Origin: Nanobdellota archaeon
Lineage (GTDB): Archaea; Nanobdellota; Nanobdellia; Pacearchaeales; GW2011-AR1
Reading direction: 5' to 3'
Length of the DNA stretch: 64,000 nucleotides
Assembly: GCA_030641715.1 (NCBI GenBank)
Contig: DAOWGX010000018.1
Location: 35,752 to 99,751, forward strand
Shown here: in pieces, positions 7,723 to 61,500 of the stretch
Numbering within the stretch: position 1 is the first letter of the stretch
Layout: every line of letters begins with the position of its first letter
Position numbers and translations under genes: made by a program
Notes under the pieces: model-generated
The model's input: only the letters and a program-made list of their open reading frames with translations
Told to the model about the DNA's origin: nothing
Database searches by the model: none

Positions 7723-7734
7723 ATTTTGGCTTTG

Positions 7735-30351: not shown

Positions 30352-30392
30352 CCCGGTATCTCTTCGGACATGCCGGGCTTTATCTCCTTTTT
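30352..30392 (+). promoter_or_regulatory. UUCG-capped 11-position hairpin + T-tract (leader attenuator or small RNA)
   Basis: CCCGGTATCTC-TTCG-GACATGCCGGG (one mismatch) then ctttatctcctttttt; TATA 30311-30320 predicts a TSS near 30341. Confidence 0.45.
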
Positions 30393-30405
30393 TCGAGGTA
30401 TTTTT

Positions 30406-31038
30406 ATGAGTAAAAAAGCTATTATTTTTATTGATGCAAATAATTGGTATCATAATCTTAAGTATTCTTTAAAGCCAAGCAGTATTGATATAAAAAAACT
30501 TTCGAGTTTGGTTGCAGGAAATTTTGATTTAGAAATATTAGAAATTAGATGGTATGCTTCGATGCCGAGTAGAAAAGATGATGAATTGATGTATAAAAGG
30601 CAGAGGGCTTTTTTGGGGCATTTGCAAAAGCAAGGAGTTAAGATAATTACTCGGAAATTGCAAAAACTTTCCACTAAAGAGTTAAAAAGGAAAAGACAGG
30701 AGCTCGTGGAGTCTTGGGATTTATGTGGGGTTTGTAAGCCGATTGTTGACGAGGCTTTTTTGGACATTGCGGATAATCAGAAGAAAGAAAAGGGGATTGA
30801 CGTGTGGATTGCTATAGATATGGTTAAGGAAGCAATACAGAAAAATGTGGATTGTTGTGTTTTGGTTTCTGGCGACGCTGATTTTGTTCCTGCGTTTAAT
30901 TTGATTAAAGAAGTTGGAAAGGATGTTTTGAGTGTTTCTGTTTCGAGGGGTTATTCGAATGAGTTGAGGCAGAAGTTTCCTTATTTTGTTTTGAAAAAAG
31001 AAGAATTAAATAATTGCTTGAAGGAGTATGGAAGATGA
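30406..31038 (+). CDS. NYN-domain (LabA-like) predicted RNase
   Basis: AIIFIDANNWYHN, GIDVWIAIDM, VLVSGDADFVPA acidic NYN motifs. Confidence 0.75.
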   Translation: MSKKAIIFIDANNWYHNLKYSLKPSSIDIKKLSSLVAGNFDLEILEIRWYASMPSRKDDELMYKRQRAFLGHLQKQGVKIITRKLQKLSTKELKRKRQELVESWDLCGVCKPIVDEAFLDIADNQKKEKGIDVWIAIDMVKEAIQKNVDCCVLVSGDADFVPAFNLIKEVGKDVLSVSVSRGYSNELRQKFPYFVLKKEELNNCLKEYGR

Positions 31039-32820: not shown

Positions 32821-33282
32821 ATGGTAAAAGGGGCGGTAAAGAAGTCGGTTAGTAAGGGTGTTGATGATGAGAGTCTTGAGGGAGTTGTTGTGGGGGGGCG
32901 TGATTCTAAGAAGGTTGAGAAGGAAGGTCCTGTCAAAAAGAAGATGACAGCGAAGGAGCGTGAGGAACTTTTGATTGAAAATTTTGTGGGATTGCAACAT
33001 GCGATGACGAATCTTTCTATTAAATTTGGGGCTTTGTCAGATAATATTACGAAGTTGCTTCAGGTTTTTGAAGAGTCAGCGAAGAGCTTTGTTTCCGGGG
33101 GGAAGATTGAAGACGATTCTATGTTGAAGAAAATCGATTCGTTGTTGGATCAAAATAAAACTATTGCGAAGGGTTTGATTTTAATGGAAGGAAGTTTAAG
33201 GAATCGTTCCGAGGCTGTTGGACAAGCACCCGTTTATTCTGAGATGCCGTATTCAAAACCCAAGCCGTTTCCGAGCACATGA
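32821..33282 (+). CDS. hypothetical coiled-coil protein
   Basis: 153-aa ORF; TATA 32791-32800; ATGA-coupled to the next ORF. Confidence 0.4.
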   Translation: MVKGAVKKSVSKGVDDESLEGVVVGGRDSKKVEKEGPVKKKMTAKEREELLIENFVGLQHAMTNLSIKFGALSDNITKLLQVFEESAKSFVSGGKIEDDSMLKKIDSLLDQNKTIAKGLILMEGSLRNRSEAVGQAPVYSEMPYSKPKPFPST

Positions 33283-34055
33283 GTTCTGAAGATGTTTCTG
33301 TAATTGCGTTGGAGCCTTTTATTAGTAGGTTTGTTTTTACGATAATTCAAAATATTCGATCGCATGATTTTTCTTATGAGGAAAGGCAGGTTGTTCATGC
33401 AGATTTGGTGCCGAAAGTTTCGGAAAAAGTTATGATGTCTTCTTTGAAGGAGAAAGAACTTCCGCTTATGAGAAGGGAGATGGATGAGTTGGTGATTCCT
33501 ATGAATAGATCTATTATGGAAACATCTGTCAAGATTCCTGTTAGAAAGCCGAGGTCTGTTATTAATAAACCTGTTATGGAACGGCTTGTTAGAGCTCCGG
33601 TTAGAAAGCCGATGCCCGTTCTTTTGCCCCCTCCGCAACCTAAAAGGGTGCAAATGTCTTCGCCATCTGTAGTGCCTCCACAAATACAATCTGTATCTCC
33701 AAAGGTTATGACTCCGAGTGTTTCTGTAAGTGTGGAATCTGATCAAGATTATGGGAGGATTACTCCGCTGTTGGGTGATCCTGTTATTTCTTTGATTGAG
33801 TGTCAGGGTGCGGGGAAACCTTTAATGATTATTCGAGCAGGTCAGAGGCAGATTACACGGATTACCTTGAGTCCTATGGAGATCAAAGAGGTTTTGGAGA
33901 AGATCTCTGAGGGGGCGCATATCCCGTTGCTGGAAGGTGTTTTTCGGGCGGCTGTTGGTAATTTTTCTATTAATGCGATTATTTCTGAGATGGTTGGGTC
34001 GAGGTTTGTGATTCGAAAGCAGACTCCGTATTCGTTGCTTGAGAGACAGGTTTAA
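33279..34055 (+). CDS. Pro-rich protein ending in a FlaI/VirB11-type ATPase N-terminal-like domain (no ATPase core)
   Basis: C-terminal ..LLGDPVISLIECQG..PLMIIRAG..ITL..EIKEVLEKIS....SRFVIRK resembles the N-domain of secretion ATPases; the ORF stops before any Walker A. Confidence 0.45.
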   Translation: MSSEDVSVIALEPFISRFVFTIIQNIRSHDFSYEERQVVHADLVPKVSEKVMMSSLKEKELPLMRREMDELVIPMNRSIMETSVKIPVRKPRSVINKPVMERLVRAPVRKPMPVLLPPPQPKRVQMSSPSVVPPQIQSVSPKVMTPSVSVSVESDQDYGRITPLLGDPVISLIECQGAGKPLMIIRAGQRQITRITLSPMEIKEVLEKISEGAHIPLLEGVFRAAVGNFSINAIISEMVGSRFVIRKQTPYSLLERQV

Positions 34056-34082
34056 ATAACTTTTAGGTTTTGTTTTGGTATG
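34003..34082 (+). repeat. 80-nt unit T, copy 1 (3' end of ORF 33279-34055 + TATA + ATG)
   Basis: 75/80 identical to copy 2; contains TATA gtttaaataa (34050-34059) centred 25.5 nt upstream of ATG 34080. Confidence 0.9.
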
Positions 34083-34652
34083 CAAAAGCATACTACACTT
34101 TTTGATGATTTAAAAAAAGCGTATGACCCAAGTAGGACATTGGGGAGATTAGATATCCATAGTTATAGCTCGAATGATTATGGTAATATATCGAATGATG
34201 CAAGAGAGTTAATTATTAATGCAGATGATAATGTAACTCTATTTATTAATAGTCCTCTTTCTAAATTCCTGATATTCAATTCTGATAAAGTAATAAGGGC
34301 TGTTTCTGAAGTTTCAGATTTGGTAAAGGTTAGGATTTTATTGAAACGAAGCAGAGGTTCTGAAGAAGTTAATGATTTAATAGAGAGGCTTCATTATACT
34401 GGTTATCGAAAAGGGAATGATAAAATAGAGATTTTAGATAAGGAGGTAATTGAAGACCAACGTCTTCGGGATGATTACTTTATTGTAGCTGATAGACGAA
34501 ATGTTTTTTGGAAAAAATCTATTCATAAAGTTTCGCAGTTTATTTATGATGTTCCTTGGATTGGGGAGAACCTAGAATCCCAGGTTAGGCTCTTGGAAGC
34601 TAAACATAAGGACAATATAAGGTATAAAGATATACCTGGCATAGGTTTGTAA
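34080..34652 (+). CDS. 190-aa cassette protein, paralog A (unknown function)
   Basis: ORF; roughly 65% aa identity to paralog B by eye; AT-rich; promoter, ATG and stop all lie in T copies. Confidence 0.6.
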   Translation: MQKHTTLFDDLKKAYDPSRTLGRLDIHSYSSNDYGNISNDARELIINADDNVTLFINSPLSKFLIFNSDKVIRAVSEVSDLVKVRILLKRSRGSEEVNDLIERLHYTGYRKGNDKIEILDKEVIEDQRLRDDYFIVADRRNVFWKKSIHKVSQFIYDVPWIGENLESQVRLLEAKHKDNIRYKDIPGIGL

Positions 34653-34723
34653 TTCGTAAACAGACTCCGTATTCTTTGCTTGAGAGACAGGTTTAAATAA
34701 CTTTTAGGTTTTGTTTTGATATG
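34644..34723 (+). repeat. 80-nt unit T, copy 2
   Basis: hand alignment, 75/80 to copy 1 and 74/80 to copy 3. Confidence 0.9.
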
Positions 34724-35293
34724 CAAAAGTGTACTACATTTTTTGATTATCTAAAAAAAACGTGTGACCCAAAGATTGCATATGGGAGATTAGATACACA
34801 TAGTTATCGCCCTAATGATTACGGCAATATATCGAATGAGGCAAGGGAGTTAATCATTAGTGCAGAGGAGAATGTAACTCTGTTTATCAGTGACCCCCTT
34901 CCTAGGTTTTTGATATATGATTCTGATAAAGTCATAAGGGCTATTTCTGAAGTTTCAGATTTTGTGAATGTTAAGATTCTATTAAAAAGAAGCGAGGATT
35001 CCAAAGAAGTAGATGATTTAATAAAGAGGCTCAATGACGCTGGTTACCAGAATAAGAATGGTCAAATAGGGGTTTTAGATAAGAGTGCAATTGGAAATGA
35101 TCGTCTCAGAGAAGATTACTTTATTGTAACTGATAGCCGAAATGTTTTTTGGAAAAAATCTATTTATGATATTGCGGAATTTATTTATGATGTGCCTTTG
35201 CTTGGGGAGAAACTGGAATCCCAAGTTGGGCTCTTGGAAGCTAAATATAAGGACAATGTAGGGTATAAAAATATATCTGGTATGAGTTTGTAA
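34721..35293 (+). CDS. 190-aa cassette protein, paralog B
   Basis: tandem paralog of 34080-34652. Confidence 0.6.
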   Translation: MQKCTTFFDYLKKTCDPKIAYGRLDTHSYRPNDYGNISNEARELIISAEENVTLFISDPLPRFLIYDSDKVIRAISEVSDFVNVKILLKRSEDSKEVDDLIKRLNDAGYQNKNGQIGVLDKSAIGNDRLREDYFIVTDSRNVFWKKSIYDIAEFIYDVPLLGEKLESQVGLLEAKYKDNVGYKNISGMSL

Positions 35294-35364
35294 TTCGTAA
35301 ACAGACTCCATATTCTTTGCTTGAGGGGCAGGTTTAAATAACTTTTAGGTTTGGTTTTGGTATG
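35285..35364 (+). repeat. 80-nt unit T, copy 3 (supplies promoter and ATG of the DUF357 gene)
   Basis: 74/80 identical to copy 2. Confidence 0.9.
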
Positions 35365-35643
35365 AAGAATGAGATTAGTGCTGAGAAGTTAAGGAAGTAT
35401 TTTGATTTGACTGAGGAGGCGTTTGTCGAGGTGAAGAAGAATATTTTTGAGGGAAAGGAAGTTGAGGCGAAGGAGATTATTGAGATGGTTGGGAATTATG
35501 TTTCGGATGCGCATCATTTTGAGGCGAAGGGTGATTGGGTTAATGCTTTTGCGGCGTTGAATTATGCGCATGGTTGGTTGGATTGTGGGGTGAAGACGAG
35601 GGTTTTTGATGTTGGGGATGATAGGTTGTTTACTGTTTGTTGA
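35362..35643 (+). CDS. DUF357-family archaeal protein
   Basis: ..HHFEAKGDWVNAFAALNYAHGWLDCG.. matches the remembered DUF357 pattern. Confidence 0.6.
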   Translation: MKNEISAEKLRKYFDLTEEAFVEVKKNIFEGKEVEAKEIIEMVGNYVSDAHHFEAKGDWVNAFAALNYAHGWLDCGVKTRVFDVGDDRLFTVC

Positions 35644-35844
35644 TTCGATAGATATATAAATTGAGAGTGCTTTTTTAATTTATGGCGATAAGAAAGGAAG
35701 GTCCTGGGAAATGAATTTTGATAATACCGGTATAGCCTTATAAGGTTCCAAAATCTATATGAATCAAAATTACTTATTTGGTCTATGAATTTAAATAAAG
35801 ATGGTCCAGCTATTTGAGAAACCTATAGTAGGTTTTTGAAAATG

Positions 35845-35874
35845 GATTCAATAAATATATAAAGCTAAATTACT
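35845..35874 (+). repeat. orphan copy of the pyrH promoter region
   Basis: gattcaataaatatataaagctaaattact, 28/30 identical to 36414-36443. Confidence 0.8.
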
Positions 35875-35883
35875 TGTTTAATT

Positions 35884-36078
35884 TTAAAGAAGATTATTGC
35901 CTAGTTCGGATAGTTTTGCGGTCGGATACATCTTATCAAAATTAAAGCCATGTTCAATCAATCCAATAAGTGTAAATCTGTCTAGAACAGTTTTATCTGA
36001 TTCTTCAATTCTTTTTCTTGTTTTATACTTTGTTAAAACTTCTGTTTCGTATTTTTCAAAAATGGGTCTTTGCTTCAT
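35884..36078 (-). CDS. hypothetical 64-aa protein (cassette gene 2)
   Basis: ORF overlapping the upstream 92-aa ORF by 4 nt. Confidence 0.4.
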   Translation of the reverse strand: MKQRPIFEKYETEVLTKYKTRKRIEESDKTVLDRFTLIGLIEHGFNFDKMYPTAKLSELGNNLL

Positions 36079-36353
36079 ATTATTATTTCCTGTTTTAAAA
36101 TATACAATTGTTTTAATTTTATATCCAGTTCTCTCACGTACTCTCCATATAAGGAACTTTTCAAATTTTTTATCTTATCCGCATATTGTATTCTTATTTC
36201 ATCATAAGGTCTATTAAATTTTTTTTGGAGAACATTTTTTATTTCATCATTTAATACTCTACTCATATTTGCTTTACTCTCTTTAAATTCATGAATCGTT
36301 TCGTCTATTTCTGATTCGCGGGTAAGTAATTGTCTTAGGTCTTTTTTGCTCAT
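36075..36353 (-). CDS. hypothetical 92-aa protein (cassette gene 1)
   Basis: ORF; two-gene minus-strand unit bracketed by the 30-nt repeats. Confidence 0.4.
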   Translation of the reverse strand: MSKKDLRQLLTRESEIDETIHEFKESKANMSRVLNDEIKNVLQKKFNRPYDEIRIQYADKIKNLKSSLYGEYVRELDIKLKQLYILKQEIII

Positions 36354-36413
36354 TTGTTTTTAAGAACATCTTTGCTTATATGTTTTTCTAAGGGCTAATT
36401 TGGGAGGGTTATT

Positions 36414-36443
36414 GATTCAATAAATATATAAATCTAAATTGCT
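36414..36443 (+). promoter_or_regulatory. pyrH promoter (functional copy of the 30-nt repeat)
   Basis: TATA atatataaat (36424-36433) centred 25.5 nt upstream of ATG 36454. Confidence 0.6.
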
Positions 36444-36453
36444 CATTCAGTAT

Positions 36454-37137
36454 ATGGAAAAAGTTTGGGTGATTTCACTTGGTGGTTCGAGGATTGTTCC
36501 CGACGAGGTTGATGAGAAATTCCTCTTGAGATTTAAAAAGCTGATTGATTCGCATCCTTCTCATAAGTTTGTTGGTGTTACTGGGGGTGGTTCTACTGCT
36601 CGGAGGTATATTTCAGCGTTGAGGAAGCTGGGGAAGACGACGAAGTCGCAGTCTGTTTCGGGGATTGCGATTACGAGGCTTCATGCAGAATTTATGGCGA
36701 AGTTTTTTGGGAAGAGTGCGAATGAGGTTATTCCGAAGAGTATGAAGGATGTTAAGAATTTGCTTGGTAAGAACCAGATTGTTTTTTGCGGGGCTTTGAG
36801 GTATAGGGAGGGGAATACTTCGGATGGGACTTCTGCGAAAATTTCGGCTTATCTTGGGTGCCCTTTTGTGAATCTTACGAATGTGAAGGGGTTGTATACT
36901 TCTGATCCTGGGAAGGATAAGGGTGCGAAGTTTATTAAGGAGATAACGTGGAAGGATTTTGAGGAGATAACGAGGAAGATGAAATTTAAGGCGGGGCAGC
37001 ATTTTGTTCTCGATCAGTCTGCGGCGAAGGTGATTTTGAGGGAGAAGATTCCGACTTATATTGTTGGCTCTTTGGCGGCGATTGATAAGATTTTGAAGGG
37101 GAAGAAGGATTTCGGGGGGACGTTGATTTCGGGATGA
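36454..37137 (+). CDS. pyrH: UMP kinase (archaeal type)
   Basis: VISLGGS..VTGGGSTAR.. amino-acid-kinase fold typical of archaeal PyrH. Confidence 0.85.
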   Translation: MEKVWVISLGGSRIVPDEVDEKFLLRFKKLIDSHPSHKFVGVTGGGSTARRYISALRKLGKTTKSQSVSGIAITRLHAEFMAKFFGKSANEVIPKSMKDVKNLLGKNQIVFCGALRYREGNTSDGTSAKISAYLGCPFVNLTNVKGLYTSDPGKDKGAKFIKEITWKDFEEITRKMKFKAGQHFVLDQSAAKVILREKIPTYIVGSLAAIDKILKGKKDFGGTLISG

Positions 37138-37192
37138 AAGGTGATTTTATTTAAAACAGAACATTTATATATAAGTTTATATAGGAGTATAT

Positions 37193-37462
37193 ATGAGATT
37201 ATCTAATTTGAAAATAATTCATTATCCAAATTTGAAGACTATTTTAGCGATTGAAAAAGTTCTGAAGGATGCAGAGTTGGTGATTAGTCGGGAAGAAATT
37301 AAGAGACGGCTTCCGATGAAAATAATGCACCAGACTTTGAATTTGATACTTGATTATTTCGAAGAAAGAAATATGATTGTCGACGGGCATAAAGGGATTT
37401 TATGGATAAAAAACGATAGTCCTAAGTTAAGGGAAGCGATTAGAAAGGGGACTGAAATTTAA
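37193..37462 (+). CDS. putative antitoxin / small DNA-binding protein
   Basis: 89-aa ORF overlapping (TAATG) the downstream RelE/ParE-like gene. Confidence 0.4.
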   Translation: MRLSNLKIIHYPNLKTILAIEKVLKDAELVISREEIKRRLPMKIMHQTLNLILDYFEERNMIVDGHKGILWIKNDSPKLREAIRKGTEI

Positions 37463-37827
37463 TGAATAAAGAAGTAGAAATAATTTTGTCGGAAGAGGTG
37501 AGTAAGCAGTATGAAGAATTGAATAGGATTGTCGGCGAGGAAATAGAGAAAGGGGTTGAGTCTTCTTTTCACCAATCTCTTTTGAGGGCGATAAATCGAA
37601 TTAAGGAACTGTTAAGACAAAATCCTTTTTTGGGAAATCAGGTACATAAAAGATTGATTCCGAGAGAATACTTAAATAAGTATGGGGTGGATAATTTATG
37701 GAGAGTTGAGTTGCCGAATCGGTGGAGGCTATTGTATAGTGTGTATGGTGGGAAGCTAAAGATAACTAATTTCGTGTTGGATTTTTTTGACCACAAGAAA
37801 TATAATAAGCTATTCAAATATAATTAA
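37462..37827 (+). CDS. RelE/ParE-superfamily toxin-like protein
   Basis: ..NLWRVELPNRWRLLYSV..ILDFFDHKKY resembles the RelE/ParE core. Confidence 0.55.
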   Translation: MNKEVEIILSEEVSKQYEELNRIVGEEIEKGVESSFHQSLLRAINRIKELLRQNPFLGNQVHKRLIPREYLNKYGVDNLWRVELPNRWRLLYSVYGGKLKITNFVLDFFDHKKYNKLFKYN

Positions 37828-37828
37828 C

Positions 37829-38389
37829 ATGGAAGATATAAATTTATTTCGGAAGAAAGATTTTATTTTTTTAAAGAAGATAAAATCAAGGTCGGAGGTT
37901 TTGGAGAGAGATGATTGTGATGGATATTTGATTGAGGCTTCGGAGAGTGAGGTGAGGAAAATTATTGCATCTCTTAAAGGTAAAAATAAAATTATTGCGG
38001 TTGTTGGTGGTGATAATGTGTTTAATCGTCGGGCTGTTGAAACATTGAAAATAGATTATTTGGTTTCTCCTGAGCGAGGTTTGAAAAAAGATAGCTTGAA
38101 GCAGAGGGACTCCGGGTTGAATCATGTTGTGGCGAAGGAAGTAGCGAAGAGAGGAGTGGTTATTGTTATTGATTTTGGTGAGGTGTCGAGGCTGGTTGGG
38201 AAGGCGAAGGCGTTGCGGTTGGAGAGGATTATTCAGAATATTAAGGTTTGTCGGAAGGCGAAGTGTTTGATTAAGATTGCGAGTTTTGCTGAGACGAAAA
38301 AAAATGTTGTTGATGAGAAGGGTTTGAGTTCTTTTGGAATTAGTCTTGGGATGTCGAGTGAGCAGGGTCGGGATGCGGTTCGGTTTTGA
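37829..38389 (+). CDS. rnp3: RNase P protein component 3 (Rpp30-like)
   Basis: TIM-barrel-like pattern ..NRRAVE..IDYLVSPE..DSGLNHVVAKEVAKRGVVI..; assignment from memory. Confidence 0.6.
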   Translation: MEDINLFRKKDFIFLKKIKSRSEVLERDDCDGYLIEASESEVRKIIASLKGKNKIIAVVGGDNVFNRRAVETLKIDYLVSPERGLKKDSLKQRDSGLNHVVAKEVAKRGVVIVIDFGEVSRLVGKAKALRLERIIQNIKVCRKAKCLIKIASFAETKKNVVDEKGLSSFGISLGMSSEQGRDAVRF

Positions 38390-38427
38390 TTCACTAAACC
38401 TTAAAAAGATAAAATCTATGAACTATT

Positions 38428-39966
38428 ATGGATGAAAAATTGCTCGTGAAGTTTTTGTCTCCGATTGAAAGGGCGACGCTTCCTAAGTTGGGTCTAGATT
38501 TCTCCGATTTGGAGGATGTTGCAAAGAAGACCTCTCAGGATAGGACGACGGTGCTTAGGGCGGTTGGGTTTTTGAAGAATAAGGGTTTGATTGAAATGGA
38601 GAGTTCTGAGAAGGAAGTTGTTAGTTTGGGGATTCTGGGGATTTATTATTTGAGGAAGGCTTTGCCGGAGAGGGTGCTTTTGAATAAGCTTGTGGAAAAG
38701 AAGGCGATTTTGATTAGTGAGATTAGGAATGTTTGCGGGTTGAATGATAATGAGGCGAAGATTGCGTTGGGGACGTTGAAGAGGAAAGCACTTGTGAGTA
38801 TTGCTAGTGGGAAGTTGAGTCTTAGTGCGAAGCCGACCGAGGTTACGAATAAGATGCTTGAGGAGTTATTTCTTGAGAAGTTGCCGCTTGAACTTGATTT
38901 GTTGGAGGCGCAGGATAAGTTGGCGTTGCAGAATCTGAAGTCGCGGAAAGATATTGTTAGTGTTGAGAATCAAAAGAAGATTGGTGTTAGGTTGACTAAG
39001 TTGGGTGAGAAGATTTCGTCGATGAATTTGAGGAAGGATTTGGTTGAGCAGTTGACTCCGAAAATGATAAAGCAGAATAGTTGGAAGGGGAAGGAGTTTA
39101 GGAGGTACGATTTGTCGTTGCCGGTTCCGAAGGTTTACGGGGGGAAGAGGCATTTTGTGAATCAGGCGATTGATTATGCGAAGTCTATTTGGTTGGAGAT
39201 GGGGTTTAAGGAGATGACTGGGAGCAAGATTGATACGGGTTTTTGGGTTTTTGATACGTTGTTTACTGCGCAGGATCATCCGGTGAGGGAGATGCAGGAT
39301 ACGTTTTATCTTAAGGGTATGGAAGGGAAGTTGCCGACGAGGTGTAAGAAAAAAGAGGATTGTATTTTGTTTAAGACGCAACAGTCGCATGAGGGGGGAA
39401 TTGATGGGAGTAAAGGTTGGCAGTATAAATGGGATGAGGAGAGCGCGAAGAAGGTTTTGATGAGAACGCATACGACGTCGCTGTCGGCGAGAAAGCTTCG
39501 GGAGATTAGGGATACGAAGGAATTTCCTGCGAAGTATTTTGCGATTGGGAAGTGTTTTCGGAATGAGACTGTTGATTGGTCGCATGGGTTTGAGTTCAAT
39601 CAGACTGAGGGGATTGTCGTCGATGAGAATGCGAATTTCAGGCAGTTGCTTGGGTATTTGATTCAGTTTTATAAGAAGATGGGGTACGAGAAGATTAGAA
39701 TTAGACCTGCGTATTTTGCGTATACCGAGCCGTCGTTGGAGGTTGATGTTTTTCATCCGGTGCATAAGAAATGGGTCGAGCTTGGGGGCGCGGGGATGTT
39801 TCGACCAGAGGTTACGATTCCGATGTTTGGGAGGCACGTTCCGGTTTTGGCGTGGGGGCAAGGATTTGACAGGATTATTACGGAGTTTTTTGGGATTAAT
39901 GATTTGCGGGAAGTTTACAAGAATGATATAAATAAATTGAGAGAGATGAAGTTTTGGAGGAAATGA
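38428..39966 (+). CDS. pheS: phenylalanine--tRNA ligase alpha subunit
   Basis: HPVREMQDTFY, FRNETVDWSHGFEFNQTEG class II motifs; archaeal/eukaryal length. Confidence 0.93.
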   Translation: MDEKLLVKFLSPIERATLPKLGLDFSDLEDVAKKTSQDRTTVLRAVGFLKNKGLIEMESSEKEVVSLGILGIYYLRKALPERVLLNKLVEKKAILISEIRNVCGLNDNEAKIALGTLKRKALVSIASGKLSLSAKPTEVTNKMLEELFLEKLPLELDLLEAQDKLALQNLKSRKDIVSVENQKKIGVRLTKLGEKISSMNLRKDLVEQLTPKMIKQNSWKGKEFRRYDLSLPVPKVYGGKRHFVNQAIDYAKSIWLEMGFKEMTGSKIDTGFWVFDTLFTAQDHPVREMQDTFYLKGMEGKLPTRCKKKEDCILFKTQQSHEGGIDGSKGWQYKWDEESAKKVLMRTHTTSLSARKLREIRDTKEFPAKYFAIGKCFRNETVDWSHGFEFNQTEGIVVDENANFRQLLGYLIQFYKKMGYEKIRIRPAYFAYTEPSLEVDVFHPVHKKWVELGGAGMFRPEVTIPMFGRHVPVLAWGQGFDRIITEFFGINDLREVYKNDINKLREMKFWRK

Positions 39967-39978
39967 AATTTGTATAAA

Positions 39979-40812
39979 ATGAAAACATTGTCGATAAAAC
40001 AACCGTGGGCAGAACTAATTTTACAAGGAAGAAAAAAAATAGAAATTAGAAAGTGGAACACTAATTTTAGAGGAGAATTTTTAATCCATAGTTCACAAAT
40101 TCCAGATAAAGAATCTATGGAAAAATTTGGATTTAGGAACCTTCCTCTTGGGTTTATTGTTGGAAAGGTAAAATTGATTAATGTAAAAATATATGAGAAT
40201 GATGAAGAGTTTTTAGGGGATGAGAATTTGCATTTAGCGGGAAAAGGATGGGGAAACAAAGGATTTATATTAAAGGACCCTCAAAGGATAAAGAAAATTA
40301 AAGCCAAAGGGAATCTTGGTTTTTGGGAATTTGGTGAAAAAACAACCCTAGAACAACAGGTAAAATTAGCAAGTTCTTCTGAAGAGATTGTAGAAATCTA
40401 TAAATATATCAAACCATTTAATCTGGATTATCCTGATTATGACGAGTGGGTTGAGAAATGTAAAAAAGAATTAGAATCCGATTATAAAAAAGCCTATTAT
40501 GTTAAAAAAGGTTCTGATATATCAGGGGTTATTATCTTTCAACCATATAAAAAGGGAGGAGATATGTTAGAAATAAAAAATTTTAGGGTTTCTTTAGCAG
40601 ATAAAAAAGAAGGTATTGGATCATTGTTATATAATTCATTAGAACTGTATGCTAAAAAACAAAATTTTAAAATAATCCAAGTAGATACCCATAGTGATGG
40701 GATGGTTGAGTTTCTTTTAAAGAAAGGTTTCAATATTATCAAAAAAGAAACATTATATTCTCCTTCACAAATGGAAACGATTTTGCAAAAAAATATTGGA
40801 GATAAAAAATGA
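39979..40812 (+). CDS. ASCH domain - GNAT acetyltransferase fusion protein
   Basis: N-terminal MKTLSIKQPWAELILQGRKKIEIR (ASCH); C-terminal IKNFRVSLADKKEGIGSLLYN..LLKKGF (GNAT motif A). Confidence 0.7.
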   Translation: MKTLSIKQPWAELILQGRKKIEIRKWNTNFRGEFLIHSSQIPDKESMEKFGFRNLPLGFIVGKVKLINVKIYENDEEFLGDENLHLAGKGWGNKGFILKDPQRIKKIKAKGNLGFWEFGEKTTLEQQVKLASSSEEIVEIYKYIKPFNLDYPDYDEWVEKCKKELESDYKKAYYVKKGSDISGVIIFQPYKKGGDMLEIKNFRVSLADKKEGIGSLLYNSLELYAKKQNFKIIQVDTHSDGMVEFLLKKGFNIIKKETLYSPSQMETILQKNIGDKK

Positions 40813-41243
40813 CAAGATTAACTATTAGGAAGGTTGGGAAAAAGAAAGAGAAGGTTTTGGAGAAAATTGTAAAAATGAAAGTTAAAATTGAAAGTATAAA
40901 TAAGGGTCCTTTTAGAAGTAAGTTTACTTTTGGAAAGAGTTGGGAGGTTGTCGATGCTATTGATAATATCTTGGAAAAAGTAGGGCTTCTTGATACTCAG
41001 AGTCATGGATTAAGGGATGAAATAATATATGGTTGTGAACCTGGACCTCAGATAGAGATTAGTAAGTTTGTTGATGAAGTTTATAATCTAGGAATGTATG
41101 ATTTAGAGAATGGAGTTTATTTTATCGATGTCTTTTTAGGGAGAAAAAAAATAATTTTAATTGTAAGGACAAAGGAAGATAAACAAAAGGAAATTTCTGA
41201 AGCTGTGTTTGAATTTGCGGATTTTGAGGGAGAGTTAATGTGA
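40809..41243 (+). CDS. hypothetical protein
   Basis: 144-aa ORF; its stop TGA lies inside the first pheT-start remnant (aatGTGAcaatact). Confidence 0.4.
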   Translation: MTRLTIRKVGKKKEKVLEKIVKMKVKIESINKGPFRSKFTFGKSWEVVDAIDNILEKVGLLDTQSHGLRDEIIYGCEPGPQIEISKFVDEVYNLGMYDLENGVYFIDVFLGRKKIILIVRTKEDKQKEISEAVFEFADFEGELM

Positions 41244-41295
41244 CAATACTAACATTAAATAAAAAAGAATTGGAAAAGAAAGTTGGAAAGATTAC
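41240..41295 (+). repeat. remnant copy 1 of the pheT 5' end
   Basis: 49/55 nt identical to 42445-42499; start codon changed ATG to GTG; would encode VTILTLNKKELEKKVGKIT.. Confidence 0.9.
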
Positions 41296-41349
41296 TACAT
41301 TTAAGTTGCTAGATGATTTTTACCTTTATGAAATCATGAAAGGAGGTAG

Positions 41350-41359
41350 GTTTAAATAT
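41350..41359 (+). promoter_or_regulatory. TATA box of the RelE-type TA operon
   Basis: gtttaaatat centred 25.5 nt upstream of ATG 41380. Confidence 0.5.
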
Positions 41360-41379
41360 CTTTAAGACATTGATAAAAA

Positions 41380-41577
41380 ATGGAACAAGTAACTCTCGAG
41401 AGTGTTAATAGGAATGTTATAGCTTTGCGTGAAGCTGTCGAAAAAATGAGAGAGGTTTTGTTGGAGGATAGTTTGGAGCTTAGTGATGAAGTGGTCGAGG
41501 AGATTGAGAGGTCGCGAAGTGCACCTAAAAGTGATTTTATTTCTCAGGAAGATGTTGAGGCTGAATTTCTTAAATGA
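41380..41577 (+). CDS. putative antitoxin
   Basis: 65-aa acidic ORF overlapping the RelE-like gene by 4 nt. Confidence 0.5.
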   Translation: MEQVTLESVNRNVIALREAVEKMREVLLEDSLELSDEVVEEIERSRSAPKSDFISQEDVEAEFLK

Positions 41578-41828
41578 TGATTAGAATTGTTTGGTATAAG
41601 GAAGCACTTGATTTTTTAAAAAAGTTAGATAATAATATTTCTGAAAGGATTGTGAAAAAGATAAAGGATGTAAGATTAAATCTTGAGAGATATGTTTTTT
41701 CTCTGGTGGATATGGGTGTATCAAAAATTAGGGTCGGAGATTATAGGCTTTTTGTAAATTATTATCAAGAGAATGAGGAGCTTGTTATTCATTCAATTAA
41801 ACATAGGAAAAACGCTTATAAAAAATGA
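41574..41828 (+). CDS. RelE/ParE-family toxin
   Basis: ..IRVGDYRLFVNY..VIHSIKHRKNAY typical RelE/ParE C-terminus; stop TGA lies in pheT-start remnant 2. Confidence 0.7.
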   Translation: MMIRIVWYKEALDFLKKLDNNISERIVKKIKDVRLNLERYVFSLVDMGVSKIRVGDYRLFVNYYQENEELVIHSIKHRKNAYKK

Positions 41829-41856
41829 CGATACTTGCTGTTGATAAAAAAGAATT
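41825..41856 (+). repeat. remnant copy 2 of the pheT 5' end
   Basis: ATGACGATACTTGCTGTTGATAAAAAAGAATT, 27/31 identical to 42444-42474. Confidence 0.8.
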
Positions 41857-41880
41857 AAATTTGATGAAGCCTTGGAGGGA

Positions 41881-42447
41881 ATGATGGAAATTGAAGCTGT
41901 ATTATTTGATATTGGGGGGGTTTTGTTGGAGGATCCTAGGCTTGGGGATTTTTGGAAAGGGAGTGATGAATCCAGGATCTTAAGGGAAAGATTTGGGACA
42001 GGTAAGATTTCTGAAGAAGATTTTGTTAAGGAAGGTTCTAAAATTTTGGATGTTTCTCCAGAAGAATTTAGGGAGGGTTATGAGGATGCTTATTCTGTTG
42101 GGGCTATTGAGGATTCCTTAAGAGTTTATGATTCTGTGAATGTGCCGAGGTATATATTTTCTGATACAAATCCTATTCATGCTAAGTATATCTGGGAAAG
42201 ATTTAAACCTATGTTTGAGAAATCAAAAGGAATTTATTTTTCTTATGAGATTGGCATTCGGAAGAGTGATCCCGAGAGTTTTAAGATTGCTCTTAAGGGG
42301 ATGGATGTGCCTGCAGGGTCGGTGCTCTTTATTGATAATAAATTGGCTTTATTGGATGTTGCGAAGTCTGTTGGGATGAAGGCGTTGCTATATCGAAATT
42401 CGGAACAGTTGAGGATGGATTTAGAAGAAAGGGGGTTGATTAAATGA
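41881..42447 (+). CDS. HAD-superfamily hydrolase
   Basis: motif I AVLFDIGGVLL; ..LFIDNK.. motif-IV-like; ATGA overlap with pheT. Confidence 0.7.
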   Translation: MMEIEAVLFDIGGVLLEDPRLGDFWKGSDESRILRERFGTGKISEEDFVKEGSKILDVSPEEFREGYEDAYSVGAIEDSLRVYDSVNVPRYIFSDTNPIHAKYIWERFKPMFEKSKGIYFSYEIGIRKSDPESFKIALKGMDVPAGSVLFIDNKLALLDVAKSVGMKALLYRNSEQLRMDLEERGLIK

Positions 42448-44153
42448 CAATACTTACTGTTAATAGAAAAGAATTGGAAAAGAAAGTTGGGAAGATTACG
42501 GAGGGGATGGAAGATAAGATTACTGAAATGGGGACGCCGATTGAAGAAGTTACCGAGGACGAATTGTCGGTTGAGGTTTTTCCGAACAGGCCGGATTTGT
42601 TGTCGCTTGGAAATTTTGCTAGAGCTGTTAATCAGTTTAATGGCAAGGGAAAGATTGCGAATTTTAAAGTCAATAAGCCGGAGAAGGATTATGTTGTTAC
42701 GATTGATAGTTCTGTGAAGGTTGTTAGACCTCATACTGTTTGTGCGATTGTAAAGGGTTTGAAGTTTACCGACGAGAAGATTAAGGAGATAGTTGATATT
42801 CAGGAGAAGTTGCATAATTCTATTGGGAGGAAGAGGAAAAAGTTGGCGATTGGGATTTACCCTCTTGACAAGATTGCGTTGCCGATTCGGTTCGTGGCGA
42901 AAAAACCGGAGGAGATAAAATTTTTGCCGTTGGAAGCTAGTCGGGAGATGACTGGAATGCAGATTCTTCGAGGGCATCCGGCAGGGAGGGAGTATGCACA
43001 TTTGCTCGAGAGTGAGAACGTTTTTCCGATTTTTGTCGATGCTGAGGATAAGGTTTTGAGTATGCCACCAATTATTAATTCTCATGAGACTGGAAGGATT
43101 GACGAAAAGACGCGTGAGATTTTTATTGAGTGTTCGGGGCATAATTTGGCTTATTTGAAAAAGTGTTTGAATATTATTCTTGCTACGATTTATGAGATGG
43201 GTGGCAAGATTTATGAGATGAATATTAGGGATTCGAGAGATGGGAATTTTGTTTCTCCGAATATGACTTGTGAGGAATTGAGTTTTGAAATTAAAAATAT
43301 CGAGAGGACACTAGGTATAAAACTGGGTGAGAAGGATGTTAGGAGTTATTTGGGTCGGATGGGTATTGGTTATGAAAATCGGGCACGTAATAGTGTACCT
43401 TCTAAATTAGGAAATAGATTTCCATCTTCATCGGGCAAGGGGAAGTCGGTTGCATTGATCCCTGCTTATCGGGCAGACATTTTGCATTGGATTGATTTGA
43501 CGGAGGAGATTGCGATTGCTTATGGTTACGAAAATTTTGAACCTGAGATTCCAGATATTTCGACGATTGCGTTTGAAGATTCTGTCGGGAAGACGAAGCG
43601 GATTATTGGAGAAATTCTTGCAGGGCTTGGGTTTTTAGAGACGTCGTCATTTCATTTGACGACGAAGAAAGATGTCAGGAAGATGCATTTTGATTATAAT
43701 GATTTTATTGAAGTCGAGGATTCGAAGACGGGGCGGGATGTTCTTCGGATGGATATGTTGACGAATCTTTTGCAGATTTTGTCGGAGAATTCAGATGCAG
43801 GGTATCCTCAGAAGATTTTTGAAATGGGTCAGGTTTTTTCGAGAAGTGGTTCGGAAAATTCAGGGACTGGTGTCGATGAGATTGAGAGGTTGGCTGTTGT
43901 GTTGATTAATGAGAAGGCGAATTTTACTGAATTGAAACAGGCTGTTGATTATTTGTTTAAGATGCTTGGGAAAGAGTATGCTCTTGAGAATGTTGAGAAT
44001 TCAAATTATATTATTGGACGGTGCGGGAAGGTTGTTGTCTACGGGAAGAGTGTTGGATTTATCGGTGAAGTTGCTCCGAGAGTTTTGAAGAATTGGAAAA
44101 TTAAAATGCCGACGGTTGCGATGGAAATTGATTTGGGGTTTTTGTTTCAATAA
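42444..44153 (+). CDS. pheT: phenylalanine--tRNA ligase beta subunit
   Basis: archaeal PheT B3_4/B5 architecture (FPNRPDLLS, RPHTVCAIV, PPIINSHETG). Confidence 0.93.
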   Translation: MTILTVNRKELEKKVGKITEGMEDKITEMGTPIEEVTEDELSVEVFPNRPDLLSLGNFARAVNQFNGKGKIANFKVNKPEKDYVVTIDSSVKVVRPHTVCAIVKGLKFTDEKIKEIVDIQEKLHNSIGRKRKKLAIGIYPLDKIALPIRFVAKKPEEIKFLPLEASREMTGMQILRGHPAGREYAHLLESENVFPIFVDAEDKVLSMPPIINSHETGRIDEKTREIFIECSGHNLAYLKKCLNIILATIYEMGGKIYEMNIRDSRDGNFVSPNMTCEELSFEIKNIERTLGIKLGEKDVRSYLGRMGIGYENRARNSVPSKLGNRFPSSSGKGKSVALIPAYRADILHWIDLTEEIAIAYGYENFEPEIPDISTIAFEDSVGKTKRIIGEILAGLGFLETSSFHLTTKKDVRKMHFDYNDFIEVEDSKTGRDVLRMDMLTNLLQILSENSDAGYPQKIFEMGQVFSRSGSENSGTGVDEIERLAVVLINEKANFTELKQAVDYLFKMLGKEYALENVENSNYIIGRCGKVVVYGKSVGFIGEVAPRVLKNWKIKMPTVAMEIDLGFLFQ

Positions 44154-44212
44154 ACTTATAAACTTCTTAGCTTAGTTAAGTAAATGATACATAGAATATC
44201 TGAAGTAGGTTT

Positions 44213-44797
44213 TTGATAATGGTGAAGGTGTCGCATGTTGTTTTTGGGATTATGGTTGTTTTGGTGATTCTTTTTGGGTTGCTTTTTGTTTTTGGGGATG
44301 AGGTTTTGCGAGTTGTAGATGATGTAATGTCTTCGGGGGGTAGCTCTAGTTCGGAAAATATTGTAGATGATGGAGACGTGGGAGTGGTTAGTGAAGCTGG
44401 AGGAGTTGAAGGTTCGGATGTTGGTGGGAGTGAGTCTGGAGATGTGGGGGAAGTAGCTGATTGTAGGATGCAACAAGTCCAATATTCTTTAAAGAATTTC
44501 AAAAATAGCGTCGAGTGTACGGATATGGGAGAGGTCGGATGTACTAGAGTTGTTGTGAGTTGTTCTATGGAAGTTTATAGTTTCTATGATGGCGTCGGTG
44601 TTTTCGGGATAAGGTACGCTTTGGTTGATTCTGATGATGAAGAGTTGGATTTTGAGTTGATTGAAAAAGAAGTTGAATTTGGGACGCCGGTGGTTTTTTC
44701 GACAGAGTTTGTCAGGAGTGATATGTCTGGTGTTGATGAGGATTTGAGTTGTCCGTTTACTGTTGAGACGGTTCCTCTAAGAGAAGTTTGTAACTAG
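44213..44797 (+). CDS. membrane-anchored secreted protein with Gly/Ser/Asp-rich linker
   Basis: N-terminal TM (VVFGIMVVLVILFGLLFVF), low-complexity linker, Cys-containing C-domain. Confidence 0.45.
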   Translation: MIMVKVSHVVFGIMVVLVILFGLLFVFGDEVLRVVDDVMSSGGSSSSENIVDDGDVGVVSEAGGVEGSDVGGSESGDVGEVADCRMQQVQYSLKNFKNSVECTDMGEVGCTRVVVSCSMEVYSFYDGVGVFGIRYALVDSDDEELDFELIEKEVEFGTPVVFSTEFVRSDMSGVDEDLSCPFTVETVPLREVCN

Positions 44798-44804
44798 GAT
44801 GTTA

Positions 44805-45284
44805 TTAGCCGAAGTAGCCACGTTCTTTTGAACTATTGTCTTCTTCAATGTTTTCATCGAATTTTTCGATAATATTGTAAATTATTTTTTTCAAGTCTTG
44901 CCATTCGTTAAAAGAATTCTCAATGAATTCTGTTTCTGCTTGTTCGGAATAAATCGTGTCTAGCTTTATAGCTTTAATTTGTAACTTTGAAAGTTTTTTG
45001 TAAACTTCTTTGATTTTCTTTTTGTTGTCTTCGTCGATTCCTCTCAGGATGGAGAACATAAACATCGGGGTTGCTGTTGGATTGAGAAGTGTTTCAAATA
45101 GATGGGTATATGCCGAAAGTTTTTCGTTGATTGTTCTTCGGATTTCTCTGATTAGGAAGAGAGATTCTTTGTCTATTGTTTTTTCGATATCGAAATCTTC
45201 CGATAATTCTTTGAAGTCGGGCAACTCGTATTTTTGTTTAAGTTTGTCGTAAGTTACGGCGAGATCGAAGTCTTTATTTTCCAT
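44805..45284 (-). CDS. hypothetical acidic protein
   Basis: 159-aa ORF; ATG 45284 is 25.5 nt from the symmetric TATA at 45305-45314. Confidence 0.45.
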   Translation of the reverse strand: MENKDFDLAVTYDKLKQKYELPDFKELSEDFDIEKTIDKESLFLIREIRRTINEKLSAYTHLFETLLNPTATPMFMFSILRGIDEDNKKKIKEVYKKLSKLQIKAIKLDTIYSEQAETEFIENSFNEWQDLKKIIYNIIEKFDENIEEDNSSKERGYFG

Positions 45285-60603: not shown

Positions 60604-61500
60604 ATGGTTCACACAGAGATACAGGAGAAGAATGGGAGGAAATATTATTATAGGGTTAAGTCTGTAAGAGAGCGGGAGAAGGTGAGGAAAGAAAGAATTT
60701 ATCTCGGAGTTAATTTAAGAAGAGAAGAATTGAAAATGAAAGAGAAGGGAGCTGATAAAAAATTAAATATTTTTGATGTTTTGTTAACGGAAGATGAAGA
60801 GAAATTTTTAGGGCAGATTAAAAGAGATTTTTCAAGAGAGCCTAAGGAAAATTACGAGAATAGGTATGAGGTTTTTTGTTCTTTGTTTGCTTATGACTCT
60901 ACGGGTATCGAGGGGAATACGATGACGTTTTCGGAAACATCTCATTTATTGTTTGATGGAATCGTTCCACGGGCGAAATCGTTGAGAGAGGTTCATGAGG
61001 TTTTGAATCATAAAAAAGCATTTGATTACATGTTGGAATATAGCGGAGATTTAACCGGGCAGTTTGTTTTAAATTTGCATACTTTGGTCGTTGCAAATAC
61101 CTTGAGAGAAGATTTGGTTCCTCAGGTTGGGAGATACAGGAATGTTCAAGTTTTTGTCGGAAGGTCTGTTCCTCCCAAGCCTTTTGAAGTTCCAAAAAAG
61201 ATGGCTACACTTTTGAGGTGGTATTCTAAAAATAAAAAAATTCTTCATCCAGTAGTTTTAGCATCATATTTTCATACTGAATTTGAAAAAATTCATCCTT
61301 TTGTCGACGGGAATGGGAGAGTGGGGAGATTATTGATGAATTTTATTTTGCATAAGAATAAGTATCCTATGATAAATATTCCTAAAAAAAGAAAATTTAA
61401 ATATTATGAGGTTTTGCAAAGTGCTCAGTATAAGGGAAATTTAGGGTCTTTTGTTAGATATTTGATAAGTATTTTAAAGAAGGATATGTTGAGGTTTTAA
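60604..61500 (+). CDS. Fic-domain protein
   Basis: HPFVDGNGRVGR Fic motif; TATA 60574-60583. Confidence 0.85.
   Translation: MVHTEIQEKNGRKYYYRVKSVREREKVRKERIYLGVNLRREELKMKEKGADKKLNIFDVLLTEDEEKFLGQIKRDFSREPKENYENRYEVFCSLFAYDSTGIEGNTMTFSETSHLLFDGIVPRAKSLREVHEVLNHKKAFDYMLEYSGDLTGQFVLNLHTLVVANTLREDLVPQVGRYRNVQVFVGRSVPPKPFEVPKKMATLLRWYSKNKKILHPVVLASYFHTEFEKIHPFVDGNGRVGRLLMNFILHKNKYPMINIPKKRKFKYYEVLQSAQYKGNLGSFVRYLISILKKDMLRF

Follow-up and report, generated by a model that had tools for sequence, protein, structure and literature searches.

We analysed 64,000 nt of contig DAOWGX010000018.1 from a Nanobdellota archaeon, a DPANN genome of the Pacearchaeota type (this whole stretch is called the window), in which pheS and pheT, the genes for the alpha and beta subunits of phenylalanyl-tRNA synthetase (PheRS), are separated by an array of small genes. 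In the reading that we favour, with a probability of about 0.6, the pheS-pheT boundary is a hotspot of gene gain and exchange throughout the clade, and its arrays grow by the joining of alleles of the locus without a recombinase. This reading is carried by three kinds of evidence: the variable occupation of the boundary in relatives, the short copies of the pheT 5' end (heads) and of the pheS 3' end (tails) that lie between the inserted genes, and the movement of inserted genes (cassettes) between lineages.

Searches based on pheT gave 160 related loci of 46-87% identity, from metagenome-assembled genomes (MAGs) and metagenomes of Pacearchaeota, Woesearchaeota and Nanoarchaeota, which are given L-numbers where they have to be told apart. 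pheS and pheT were colinear and co-oriented in 136 of them, corresponding to 122 unique loci. Among these 122 the two genes are closest where they overlap in an ATGA (a gap of -4 nt) and farthest apart where the gap reaches about 4 kb; 92 loci are occupied (gap >150 nt) and 25 are empty, the genes abutting or overlapping, as in L010, where the junction reads GAGAATGA followed by CAATAC. Occupied gaps hold 0-6 open reading frames (ORFs) of at least 60 amino acids (aa), 161 in total. These are co-oriented and tightly packed, with 220 of 283 consecutive gene junctions (78%) overlapping or no more than 5 nt apart. The gap contents of the five closest relatives all differ from one another and from the window: L001 has a MazG gene only, L003 a PNPOx-like gene only, L004 a Nudix gene only, L005 relBE with a hypothetical gene and MazG, and L002 eight genes. 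An earlier interpretation of the window, made from its letters alone (the sequence-only reading), had pointed to orthologous loci as the place to look for 0, 1 or 2 cassettes; the comparison, with 0-6 cassettes found, supports a hotspot. The same reading had proposed serial insertion at one hotspot. Both the hotspot and serial accretion stand, and the single fixed point inside pheT at which insertion was placed does not.

The recurrent families in the gaps, checked with Pfam, were MazG (36 ORFs in 31 loci), HIT (16 in 16), ASCH (11 in 7), DUF3850/ASCH-like (11 in 11), Nudix (9 in 9), Ser_hydrolase (8 in 8), PNPOx (6 in 6) and hyp144 (6 in 5). All ORFs of these recurrent families lie on the plus strand. 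In all, the gap ORFs form 81 clusters, with 57 singletons. At least one MazG, HIT or Nudix gene was present in 46 of the 92 occupied loci, and in 59 when ASCH-type genes were included. All four of these types are almost absent from the 8 kb on either side of the loci, and only 9 of the 1,827 ORFs in those flanks have a homologue among the gap ORFs; the cargo is therefore specific to this slot. Hydrolases that act on nucleotides and dinucleoside polyphosphates (MazG, HIT, Nudix) may be kept here in preference to other genes. PheRS itself produces diadenosine tetraphosphate (Ap4A) and aminoacyl-adenylates, and it is conceivable that this cargo is tied functionally to PheRS through these by-products. 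That MazG, HIT, Nudix and ASCH-type genes are so strongly enriched in one slot suggests, as a hypothesis, a link to the expression of PheRS.

Some further features of the cargo were noted. One clear exception to co-orientation is found in the largest gap (3,957 nt, in L014), where ORFs of 336 and 247 aa lie on the minus strand (4052-6047); by eye the 336-aa ORF is a candidate reverse transcriptase. Cassette ORFs start with MT more often than expected (16% versus about 4%), an enrichment confounded by family ancestry and ATGA overlaps and suggestive only. A reading of the arrays as defence islands was rejected, as PADLOC gave generic domain-level matches only (the GNAT region to PDC-M11A, HIT/ThsC, Nudix, Zot-like).

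In the window, pheS occupies 38428-39966 and pheT, of the archaeal type, 42444-44153. Both genes, like all features described between them, are on the plus strand. pheS scored 497 bits against NCBIfam NF003210 (cut-off 350) and pheT 461 bits against TIGR00471 pheT_arch (cut-off 283); both are above the equivalog cut-offs and are supported by Pfam (tRNA-synt_2d in the case of pheS). The identities and coordinates of the two genes and their separation by accessory genes were thus correct in the sequence-only reading. It had counted three cassette blocks in the gap of 2,477 nt, which in fact contains four cassettes and three linkers; a degenerate linker, which has become part of a 144-aa ORF, divides the supposed first block into two cassettes. 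Cassette A (39979-40812) encodes an ASCH-GNAT fusion protein of 277 aa. Cassette B (40875-41243) is the core of the 144-aa hypothetical protein, whose ORF (40809-41243) has no family in the Pfam scan and whose original ATG was probably at 40875. Further members of its family are found between pheS and pheT in L005 (76% aa identity), L002 (two copies) and L040. Cassette C (41380-41828) consists of a relB-like gene for a 65-aa antitoxin (41380-41577) that overlaps, through an ATGA, the gene for an 84-aa toxin of the ParE/RelE family (41574-41828). The toxin matched PF05016 (E 9e-8, 33 bits, cut-off 23) and the antitoxin ORF had no family match in the Pfam scan; a small toxin of RelE/ParE fold behind an overlapping small antitoxin gene is the arrangement of a type II toxin-antitoxin system. 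Cassette D (41884-42447) encodes a hydrolase of the HAD family. The order of the array is pheS, a foreign pheS tail, ASCH-GNAT, a fused head-tail linker whose head part is putative, the hypothetical gene, a head of 56 nt, a leader with relBE, a head of 32 nt joined to a tail of 27 nt, HAD and pheT.

G+C content is lower in the gap (0.27-0.39) than in pheS (0.41-0.47) and pheT (0.40-0.45), or 0.32 in the gap overall versus 0.45 in the flanks; for the cassettes themselves it is 0.27-0.33. A strong and sustained GC skew of +0.3 to +0.6 (G in excess over C on the coding strand) runs through window positions 36000-45000, in core genes and cassettes alike. The array is not an assembly artefact: it is found base for base in two more assembled contigs, the ENA scaffold L161 (7,837 nt) and the Logan contig L163 (1,055 nt, run SRR13892586), of which at least the ENA contig shares BioSample SAMN18200493.

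Two extra copies of the pheT start had been described in the sequence-only reading, and both are confirmed. Copy 1 (41240-41295, 56 nt) begins with GTG at 41240 and is identical at 49 of 55 positions (89%) between 41241-41295 and the resident 42445-42499; it opens a 41-aa ORF (41240-41365). Copy 2 matches at 30 of 34 positions (41823-41856 versus 42442-42475), or 28 of 32 counted from the ATG. The type of sequence from which the head remnants derive is given by the first 56 nt of pheT. No other repeated gene start was found in the window. It also holds true that the three upstream ORFs end in the TGA of (A/G)TGA overlaps: the stop of cassette B lies in the GTGA that opens copy 1 (41241-41243), that of the toxin gene in the ATGA that opens copy 2 (41826-41828), and that of the HAD gene in the ATGA of pheT itself (42445-42447). 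Copy 1 does not behave as a decayed copy of the resident pheT start, as had been assumed, since over its 56 nt it is identical to the pheT start of L005 at 54 positions, to that of L002 at 53 and to that of the resident gene at 49. It is either older than the resident gene's own substitutions or imported. On neither account can the event be dated by how far copy 1 has diverged from the resident gene, and the proposal to date the copies in this manner is invalid, as they are not simply decaying resident copies.

The window also contains three pheS-tail remnants that the sequence-only reading had missed (39963-39978, 40843-40867 and 41858-41884). The pheS stop lies in the context ...GGAGGAAATGA, the same ATGA overlap that links pheS straight to pheT in relatives with an empty site. 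Between this stop and the start of the ASCH gene lie 12 nt which, taken with the overlapping ATGA, give ATGAAATTTGTATAAA (39963-39978; MKFV and a stop). This remnant matches the tail of L060, where the ASCH gene is preceded by AATGAAATTTTGGATAAA (MKFWIK), a duplicate of L060's own pheS tail, and the window aligns with L060 colinearly at 71% through pheS into the ASCH cassette. By its sequence, the pheS tail that precedes the window's ASCH-GNAT cassette is of a foreign type.

The other two tails belong to composite linkers. Linker 0 (40809-40874) is degenerate and forms an N-terminal extension of 22 residues on the 144-aa ORF, lacking from the homologues in L002 and L040. It starts like a head, ATGACAAGATTAACTATT... 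(MTRLTIRK), and continues with a tail-like segment at 40843-40867 (AGAAAGAGAAGGTTTTGGAGAAAAT) that is identical to 39940-39964 at 20 of 25 positions and is read out of frame. Linker 0 thus looks like an older head-tail linker that has lost its stop and become fused to the hypothetical gene; as the head matches the window's own pheT weakly (17 of 32), the assignment of that part is an inference. Linker 2 (41825-41884) is better preserved and forms an in-frame mini-ORF, MTILAVDKKELNLMKPWRE and a stop, in which a pheT head (41825-41856) is joined to a pheS tail (about 41858-41884); the segment 41842-41884 matches the pheS end at 39924-39966 at 74%. Its stop overlaps the HAD start (TGATG), its tail places a GGAGGG Shine-Dalgarno-like motif 4-7 nt before the HAD ATG, and its join point is the same as that of a linker in L005 (4197-4256).

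Scars of both kinds were found in the related loci. Each gap was scanned at the nucleotide level for matches of at least 18 of 24 positions to the locus's own pheT head or pheS tail. Ten head matches were observed compared with 0.55 expected from shuffled queries, all beginning exactly at an ATG, and 13 tail matches compared with 1.55; the reverse strand gave 0 head and 0 tail matches in the same scan. A scan at the peptide level gave 18 forward and 0 reverse matches. Heads and tails recur in L002, L005, L012, L015, L081, L095, L060 and L109, with lengths of 13-55 nt for heads and about 15-41 nt for tails, that is, with variable breakpoints. Head-tail fusions have at least three different join points. 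They form the mini-ORF MTILTVNKKELNLEKFWRK in L005 (joined at GAATT, as in linker 2 of the window), MTILILNKSGDMRFWRK in L002 (joined at TAAATAAA) and MTILTVDRKEFEKRFWRK in L095 (joined at GAGAAGAAG), each ending in a stop. Heads alone lie behind MazG (L081, L012), Ser_hydrolase (L015, L002) and PNPOx (L002), and some are fused to the N-terminus of the next gene product (MTILNNG... in L002, the HAD protein MTTSK... in L164). Tails alone precede MazG in L005, L002, L081 and L109; tails also stand ahead of HAD in the window and of ASCH in L060 and the window, and in L001 and L057 MazG lies directly behind the real pheS. These two-sided scars and the head-tail fusions point to the joining of two whole-locus alleles and not to repeated insertion into one point of pheT.

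Two observations concern the reading frames at the scars. In L001 (7685-8020) and L005 (4256-4576) the MazG cassette beside pheT has no stop in the ATGA, and its reading frame, different from that of pheT, extends over roughly the first 20 nt of pheT (...KGVY(SK)DDNTN... up to a stop); with these cassettes the pheT head is seen to supply stop codons in two of the three frames. The in-frame mini-ORFs were considered as a sign of selection and rejected as such, since just three of four head-tail linkers are in frame, which is not significant.

Two cassettes, as sequence comparison indicates, have clearly moved between distant lineages together with a pheS tail of the donor type. Over 824 nt the window's ASCH-GNAT cassette shares 79.6% nucleotide identity with the separate ASCH and GNAT genes that L047/L142 carry between pheS and pheT, while pheS and pheT of those loci are just 64% identical to the window's at the nucleotide level; the cassette carries a KFWIK-type pheS tail, typical of the distant subclade of L047/L142. 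In the second case, the MazG protein of L109 is 89% identical to that of L057, while pheT is 46% identical, and the L109 gene is preceded by a tail encoding EMKFWMR and a stop, which does not resemble the pheS end of L109 itself. The only close homologue of the window's HAD protein (63% identity) is found in L164, where the order is pheS, Ser_hydrolase, MazG, HAD, pheT; that it also lies just upstream of pheT is as expected if cassettes circulate as pieces of the locus. Within cassette A, ASCH and GNAT have undergone a recent gene fusion: in L047 (2780-2830) and L060 (7505-7555) they are separate ORFs with an ATGA overlap, and in the window (40320-40380) this stop/start overlap is replaced by ...GGTGAAAAAACAACC..., giving the single 277-aa ORF.

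We propose that the conserved, essential flanks pheS and pheT would serve as anchors for recombination, and that the unit of exchange would be a fragment of a locus allele, in which one or several small genes of the same orientation stand between a short 3' tail of pheS and a short 5' head of pheT. Joining would take place near the boundary, between the resident copy of the locus and DNA of a relative or between two sister copies. One side would recombine in a flank, or in the short homology of a pheT head or pheS tail, and the other would be joined illegitimately at a few bases of microhomology, so that a head, a tail or a head-tail fusion would be left between cassettes. Selection would then retain only arrangements that are co-oriented, free of terminators and translationally coupled, presumably because the pheS promoter must go on driving pheT, and most scars would be trimmed. 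The joining would thus be done by host recombination rather than by a dedicated recombinase, with DNA that may be taken up from relatives.

No integrase or transposase was found among 46 proteins scanned near the site, and Pfam scans of the gap genes and of 38 ORFs of the 64-kb window gave no recombinase; no tyrosine or serine recombinase was found among the gap genes, their neighbours within 8 kb on either side and the same 38 ORFs. Linkers 0, 1 and 2, folded as single-stranded DNA on both strands, contained no attC-like hairpins (z 0.1-0.9 versus shuffles). The only repeats at the site are copies of the ends of the flanking genes, and conventional terminal repeats are absent from it. The idea that a quasi-repeat shared by head and tail drives unequal crossover was rejected, as their similarity is no higher than that of composition-matched shuffles in either subclade (mean z about 0).

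Several points weigh against our interpretation. Most cassette boundaries in related arrays are seamless, with stop/start overlaps and no scar seen (for example in L057, L022 and L014), and in the close clade there are only about nine pheT-head remnants for 44 internal boundaries. With most boundaries lacking a remnant, either just some of the events leave a scar or scars are soon trimmed away; the scar-forming route may accordingly be a minority pathway, or trimming may be fast. The pheT-head remnants are confined to the 'MTILT' subclade, and the joining of alleles leaves the origin of seamless single-cassette alleles unexplained. Head and tail have no significant mutual similarity, and the joins rest on microhomologies of 5-9 nt, which could be coincidental. 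The identity of the hypothetical gene and its head remnant to L005 (83%) equals that of the flanks, and this block may be vertically inherited rather than imported. Finally, the search for a recombinase covered 64 kb of the genome, and one could be encoded elsewhere.

The relBE cassette differs from the others in its surroundings. In the window, L081 and L005 it has a pheT head of about 55 nt on its left, then a leader, and on its right an ATGA with a pheT head, which in L081 is the real pheT. The leader, ATGAAAGGAGGTAGGTTTAAATATCTTTAA (41336-41365), is conserved upstream of relB in L081 and L005, with the consensus ATGAAAGGAGGTAG(G/A)TTTAAATATC in the three loci, and contains a TATA-like element, TTTAAATA (41351-41358), 21 nt upstream of the relB ATG. 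This element is probably relBE's own promoter, to judge by its sequence and position. Insertion just inside the pheT start with regeneration of the pheT head, as put forward in the sequence-only reading, fits relBE, with its heads on both sides, and does not fit the cassettes generally. relBE behaves as a unit, and its geometry is as would be expected if a circle (head, leader, relB, relE) integrated by crossover within the pheT head; this would also explain why the left head has 56 nt and the right head 32 nt running into a pheS tail. Bracketing by direct repeats of the end of the target gene, with that gene reconstituted, is seen for relBE only. The module encodes antitoxin and toxin only, with no integrase of its own, and no fixed core is present.

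Other observations were made on this module. In L008 the Ser_hydrolase ORF at 7312-8004 is continuous with remains of relBE, namely the C-terminal half of relB and the final 13 codons of relE, upstream of the pheT ATGA; this decayed relBE fused to its neighbour shows that deletion trims arrays. The segment 41296-41365 was considered as a diverged pheS tail and rejected: its best score at the DNA level was 21 compared with 95th and 99th control percentiles of 20 and 22, and at the protein level the score was weakly raised (30 compared with a control maximum of 31). The 3' part of this segment (41336-41365) is the relBE leader. Carriage by viruses or plasmids was also rejected, as the relBE leader and the pheT head gave no exact-pattern matches in viral contigs.

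Of the alternatives to the joining of alleles, the best-surviving is the strict model of the sequence-only reading, in which each element inserts at a fixed point inside the pheT start and brings a replacement 5' end, and the displaced heads decay and date the events. It agrees with the fact that a pheT head comes after each block of the window, its (A/G)TGA containing the stop of the ORF upstream, and with relBE, which has heads on both sides in the window, L081 and L005 and directly adjoins the real pheT in L081 and L008. However, head lengths that vary from 13 to 55 nt do not suit a fixed point, pheS tails are duplicated too and are found in head-tail fusions, and copy 1 is nearer to the pheT of other lineages (54/56) than to the resident gene (49/56). 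MazG, ASCH-GNAT and HAD stand behind a real or remnant pheS tail, as expected for pieces of locus alleles. We consider the strict model unlikely.

A site-specific recombinase encoded elsewhere, of the kind found in integrons or integrative elements and using the pheS-stop/pheT-start junction as its attachment site, would account for arrays of co-oriented, cassette-like genes and for the use of the same site by distant lineages. Toxin-antitoxin and acetyltransferase cargo is typical of integrons, which exist in Nanoarchaeota (PMC9668308), and many seamless junctions share stop/start contexts of the TAAAATGG type. Such an enzyme is nevertheless decidedly unlikely, given the negative searches for a tyrosine or serine recombinase and for attC-like hairpins described above, boundaries that mostly leave 0-5 nt for a site, and scars with variable rather than fixed breakpoints.

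It is very improbable that an ancestral long operon, pheS-(MazG, HIT, Nudix, ASCH ...)-pheT, descended vertically and was pruned differently in each lineage, nothing moving horizontally, with the copies arising as by-products of tandem duplication. The families are specific to the site and functionally coherent (46/92 loci; 9/1,827 flank ORFs), the cassettes are on average 16 points less conserved than the flanks, and the window and L005 are as similar in the hypothetical block as in the flanks, all of which such an operon could explain. Against this stand the 81 ORF clusters with 57 singletons, the shuffled order and combinations of cassettes, their low G+C content in the window (0.32 versus 0.45 in the flanks) and the two cassettes whose similarity far exceeds that of their flanks and whose pheS tails are of the donor type. 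Moreover, the head-tail fusions join unrelated cassettes and are therefore not tandem duplicates.

The view that the remnants are conserved for a function of their own, as leader or coupling peptides or as regulatory sites, and are needed regardless of insertions is scarcely credible to us. In its favour, three of four head-tail linkers are in-frame mini-ORFs, the start of each overlapping the stop of the gene before it and the stop overlapping the start of the gene after it, the pheS tail offers a GGAGG Shine-Dalgarno-like motif 4-7 nt before the HAD ATG, and the end of the 41-aa ORF (MKGGRFKY[LP] and the stop) is conserved in three genomes. But the MKGGRFKYL segment coincides with the TATA-like relBE leader, which gives an explanation of its conservation at the DNA level; remnants were not found at empty sites nor in most multi-cassette arrays, their lengths and join points differ, and the tail of linker 0 is out of frame. 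A secondary role in translational coupling is possible and leaves the origin of the remnants unexplained. That the assembly is a chimera of strain variants of the locus, conceivable in MAG-derived sequence from a community that probably held several related strains, can practically be dismissed in view of the two other contigs with the identical array (at least one of the same BioSample), the diverged homologues of the linkers in MAGs of unrelated studies (L005, L002, L081, L095) and the 8-9 nt, at most, shared by head and tail, which are too little for an assembler to join.

The joining of locus alleles, which we prefer, has its nearest parallel in the minimal mobile elements (MMEs) of Neisseria (Saunders & Snyder 2002; Snyder et al. 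2007). In the summary of these in PMC3082526, strain-variable content is noted at the pheS/pheT locus of Neisseria, and the incorporation of MMEs is attributed to homologous recombination in their flanks. MMEs resemble the archaeal arrays in having no mobility genes, and pheS/pheT is a site in both Neisseria and these archaea. At the archaeal locus, too, conserved flanks enclose differing whole-gene cassettes, and no transposase, integrase or terminal repeats were found. The differences are that the hosts here are DPANN archaea and not a transformable bacterium, that the slot lies inside a translationally coupled operon, and that contents are additive (arrays of up to six genes) rather than alternative as in Neisseria. 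In addition, junction scars (heads, tails and head-tail mini-ORFs) record illegitimate joins, and the cargo consists mainly of small genes of the nucleotide-hydrolase type, in contrast to, for example, restriction-modification systems. The best reading of the pheS-pheT arrays is as a recombinase-free, additive version of an MME.

Homology-facilitated illegitimate recombination (de Vries & Wackernagel 2002; Prudhomme 2002; Meier & Wackernagel 2003) integrates foreign DNA by one homologous anchor and an illegitimate join at 3-10 bp of microhomology, as summarised in PMC6382021. It has the geometry needed for a joint of pheT head and pheS tail beside an intact pheT. Its known demonstrations are confined to naturally transformable bacteria, at low frequency, whereas here it would be deduced from scars alone, and the target duplications seen here differ from the more usual deletions.

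Integrons are also found in archaea, including Nanoarchaeota (PMC9668308). The pheS-pheT arrays resemble them in their tandem, short, mostly promoterless and co-oriented ORFs at one site, their toxin-antitoxin and acetyltransferase cassettes, the repeated linkers between some cassettes and the exchange across lineages. The recurrent families are all on the plus strand; relBE appears to have a TATA-like element of its own. Unlike in integrons, no IntI was found in the sequence searched (gap genes, neighbours within 8 kb and 38 window ORFs), attC hairpins are replaced by unstructured linkers or by boundaries mostly of 0-5 nt, and the linkers are copies of the ends of the flanking genes with variable breakpoints. 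One could go further and see the junction as a recombinase-independent analogue of the integron, a standing platform for gene capture in DPANN archaea. In such an analogue the head and tail scars would be portable homology handles for excision of circles, reinsertion at any copy and swaps between lineages, and captured genes would be expressed by read-through and translational coupling from pheS. We regard this extension as tentative and rather unlikely.

Some integrative elements target the end of a gene and carry a replacement copy of it, for example islands targeting tRNA genes and archaeal integrative plasmids and viruses. relBE is like these in being bracketed by direct repeats of the target end, with a functional gene reconstituted on one side. 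It differs in that the element has no integrase and the target is the 5' end of a protein-coding gene; the repeats are also unequal and variable, and other cassettes carry the 3' end of the neighbouring gene. Oliveira, Touchon and Rocha reportedly found in 2017 that bacterial gene gain is concentrated in a few intervals between conserved core genes, and many of these hotspots are said to be without mobile-element genes and to turn over by recombination in the flanks. Compared with those, the interval described here lies inside an essential two-gene operon, its cargo is minute and confined to one strand, and the joins can be read directly from its scars.

DPANN archaea have tiny genomes with few recognisable mobile elements, and their gene gain is poorly understood. 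The pheS-pheT slot offers a readable site of gene gain, frequent across the clade, at which molecular joins are still legible. We found no earlier description in the literature of a pheS-pheT hotspot in archaea. A hotspot flanked by core genes would not alone surprise a specialist; the notable features are an array in the PheRS operon throughout the clade, legible scars, coherent cargo and the lack of an integrase in the sequence examined. The MME concept would extend from transformable bacteria to archaea and gain an additive mode of array building, and the use of the pheS/pheT pair as such a site in both Neisseria and these archaea is a convergence. For annotation, short pheT pseudo-starts and mini-ORFs in such arrays are scars and not genes, and the spacing between pheS and pheT could act as a strain marker in metagenomes.

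A second variable site is present in the window at 34002-35369 (context 33279-36439), where inserted genes each follow a copy of the 3' end of the upstream gene. A segment of 84 nt occurs three times, at 34004, 34645 (94% identical) and 35286 (88% identical), and consists of the last 54 nt of gene 33279-34055 (...FVIRKQTPYSLLERQV and the stop), a TTTAAATA box and a short leader. The copies precede two paralogous 190-aa genes without a Pfam family (34080-34652 and 34721-35293) and a 93-aa gene (35362-35643). The distance from the homologue of gene 33279 to the amino-acid-kinase gene is about 330-390 nt in relatives versus 2.4 kb in the window. Tandem Repeats Finder found nothing at 33-36.6 kb, because the period there exceeds 500 nt.

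Genes for an NYN-domain protein are pheS-pheT cassettes in L012 and L015, and the window also encodes a Fic/DOC-family protein and an NYN-domain protein (60604-61500 and 30370-31038). Upstream of the PheRS operon, the RNase P p30 gene (37787-38389) lies 39 nt before the window's pheS, with similar spacing in L002 and L005, and the spacing is 1.8-4.5 kb in many relatives (L004, L007, L009, L012, L013, L015-L017). This interval is either another variable interval beside the PheRS operon or a conserved block that was lost in the lineage of the window.

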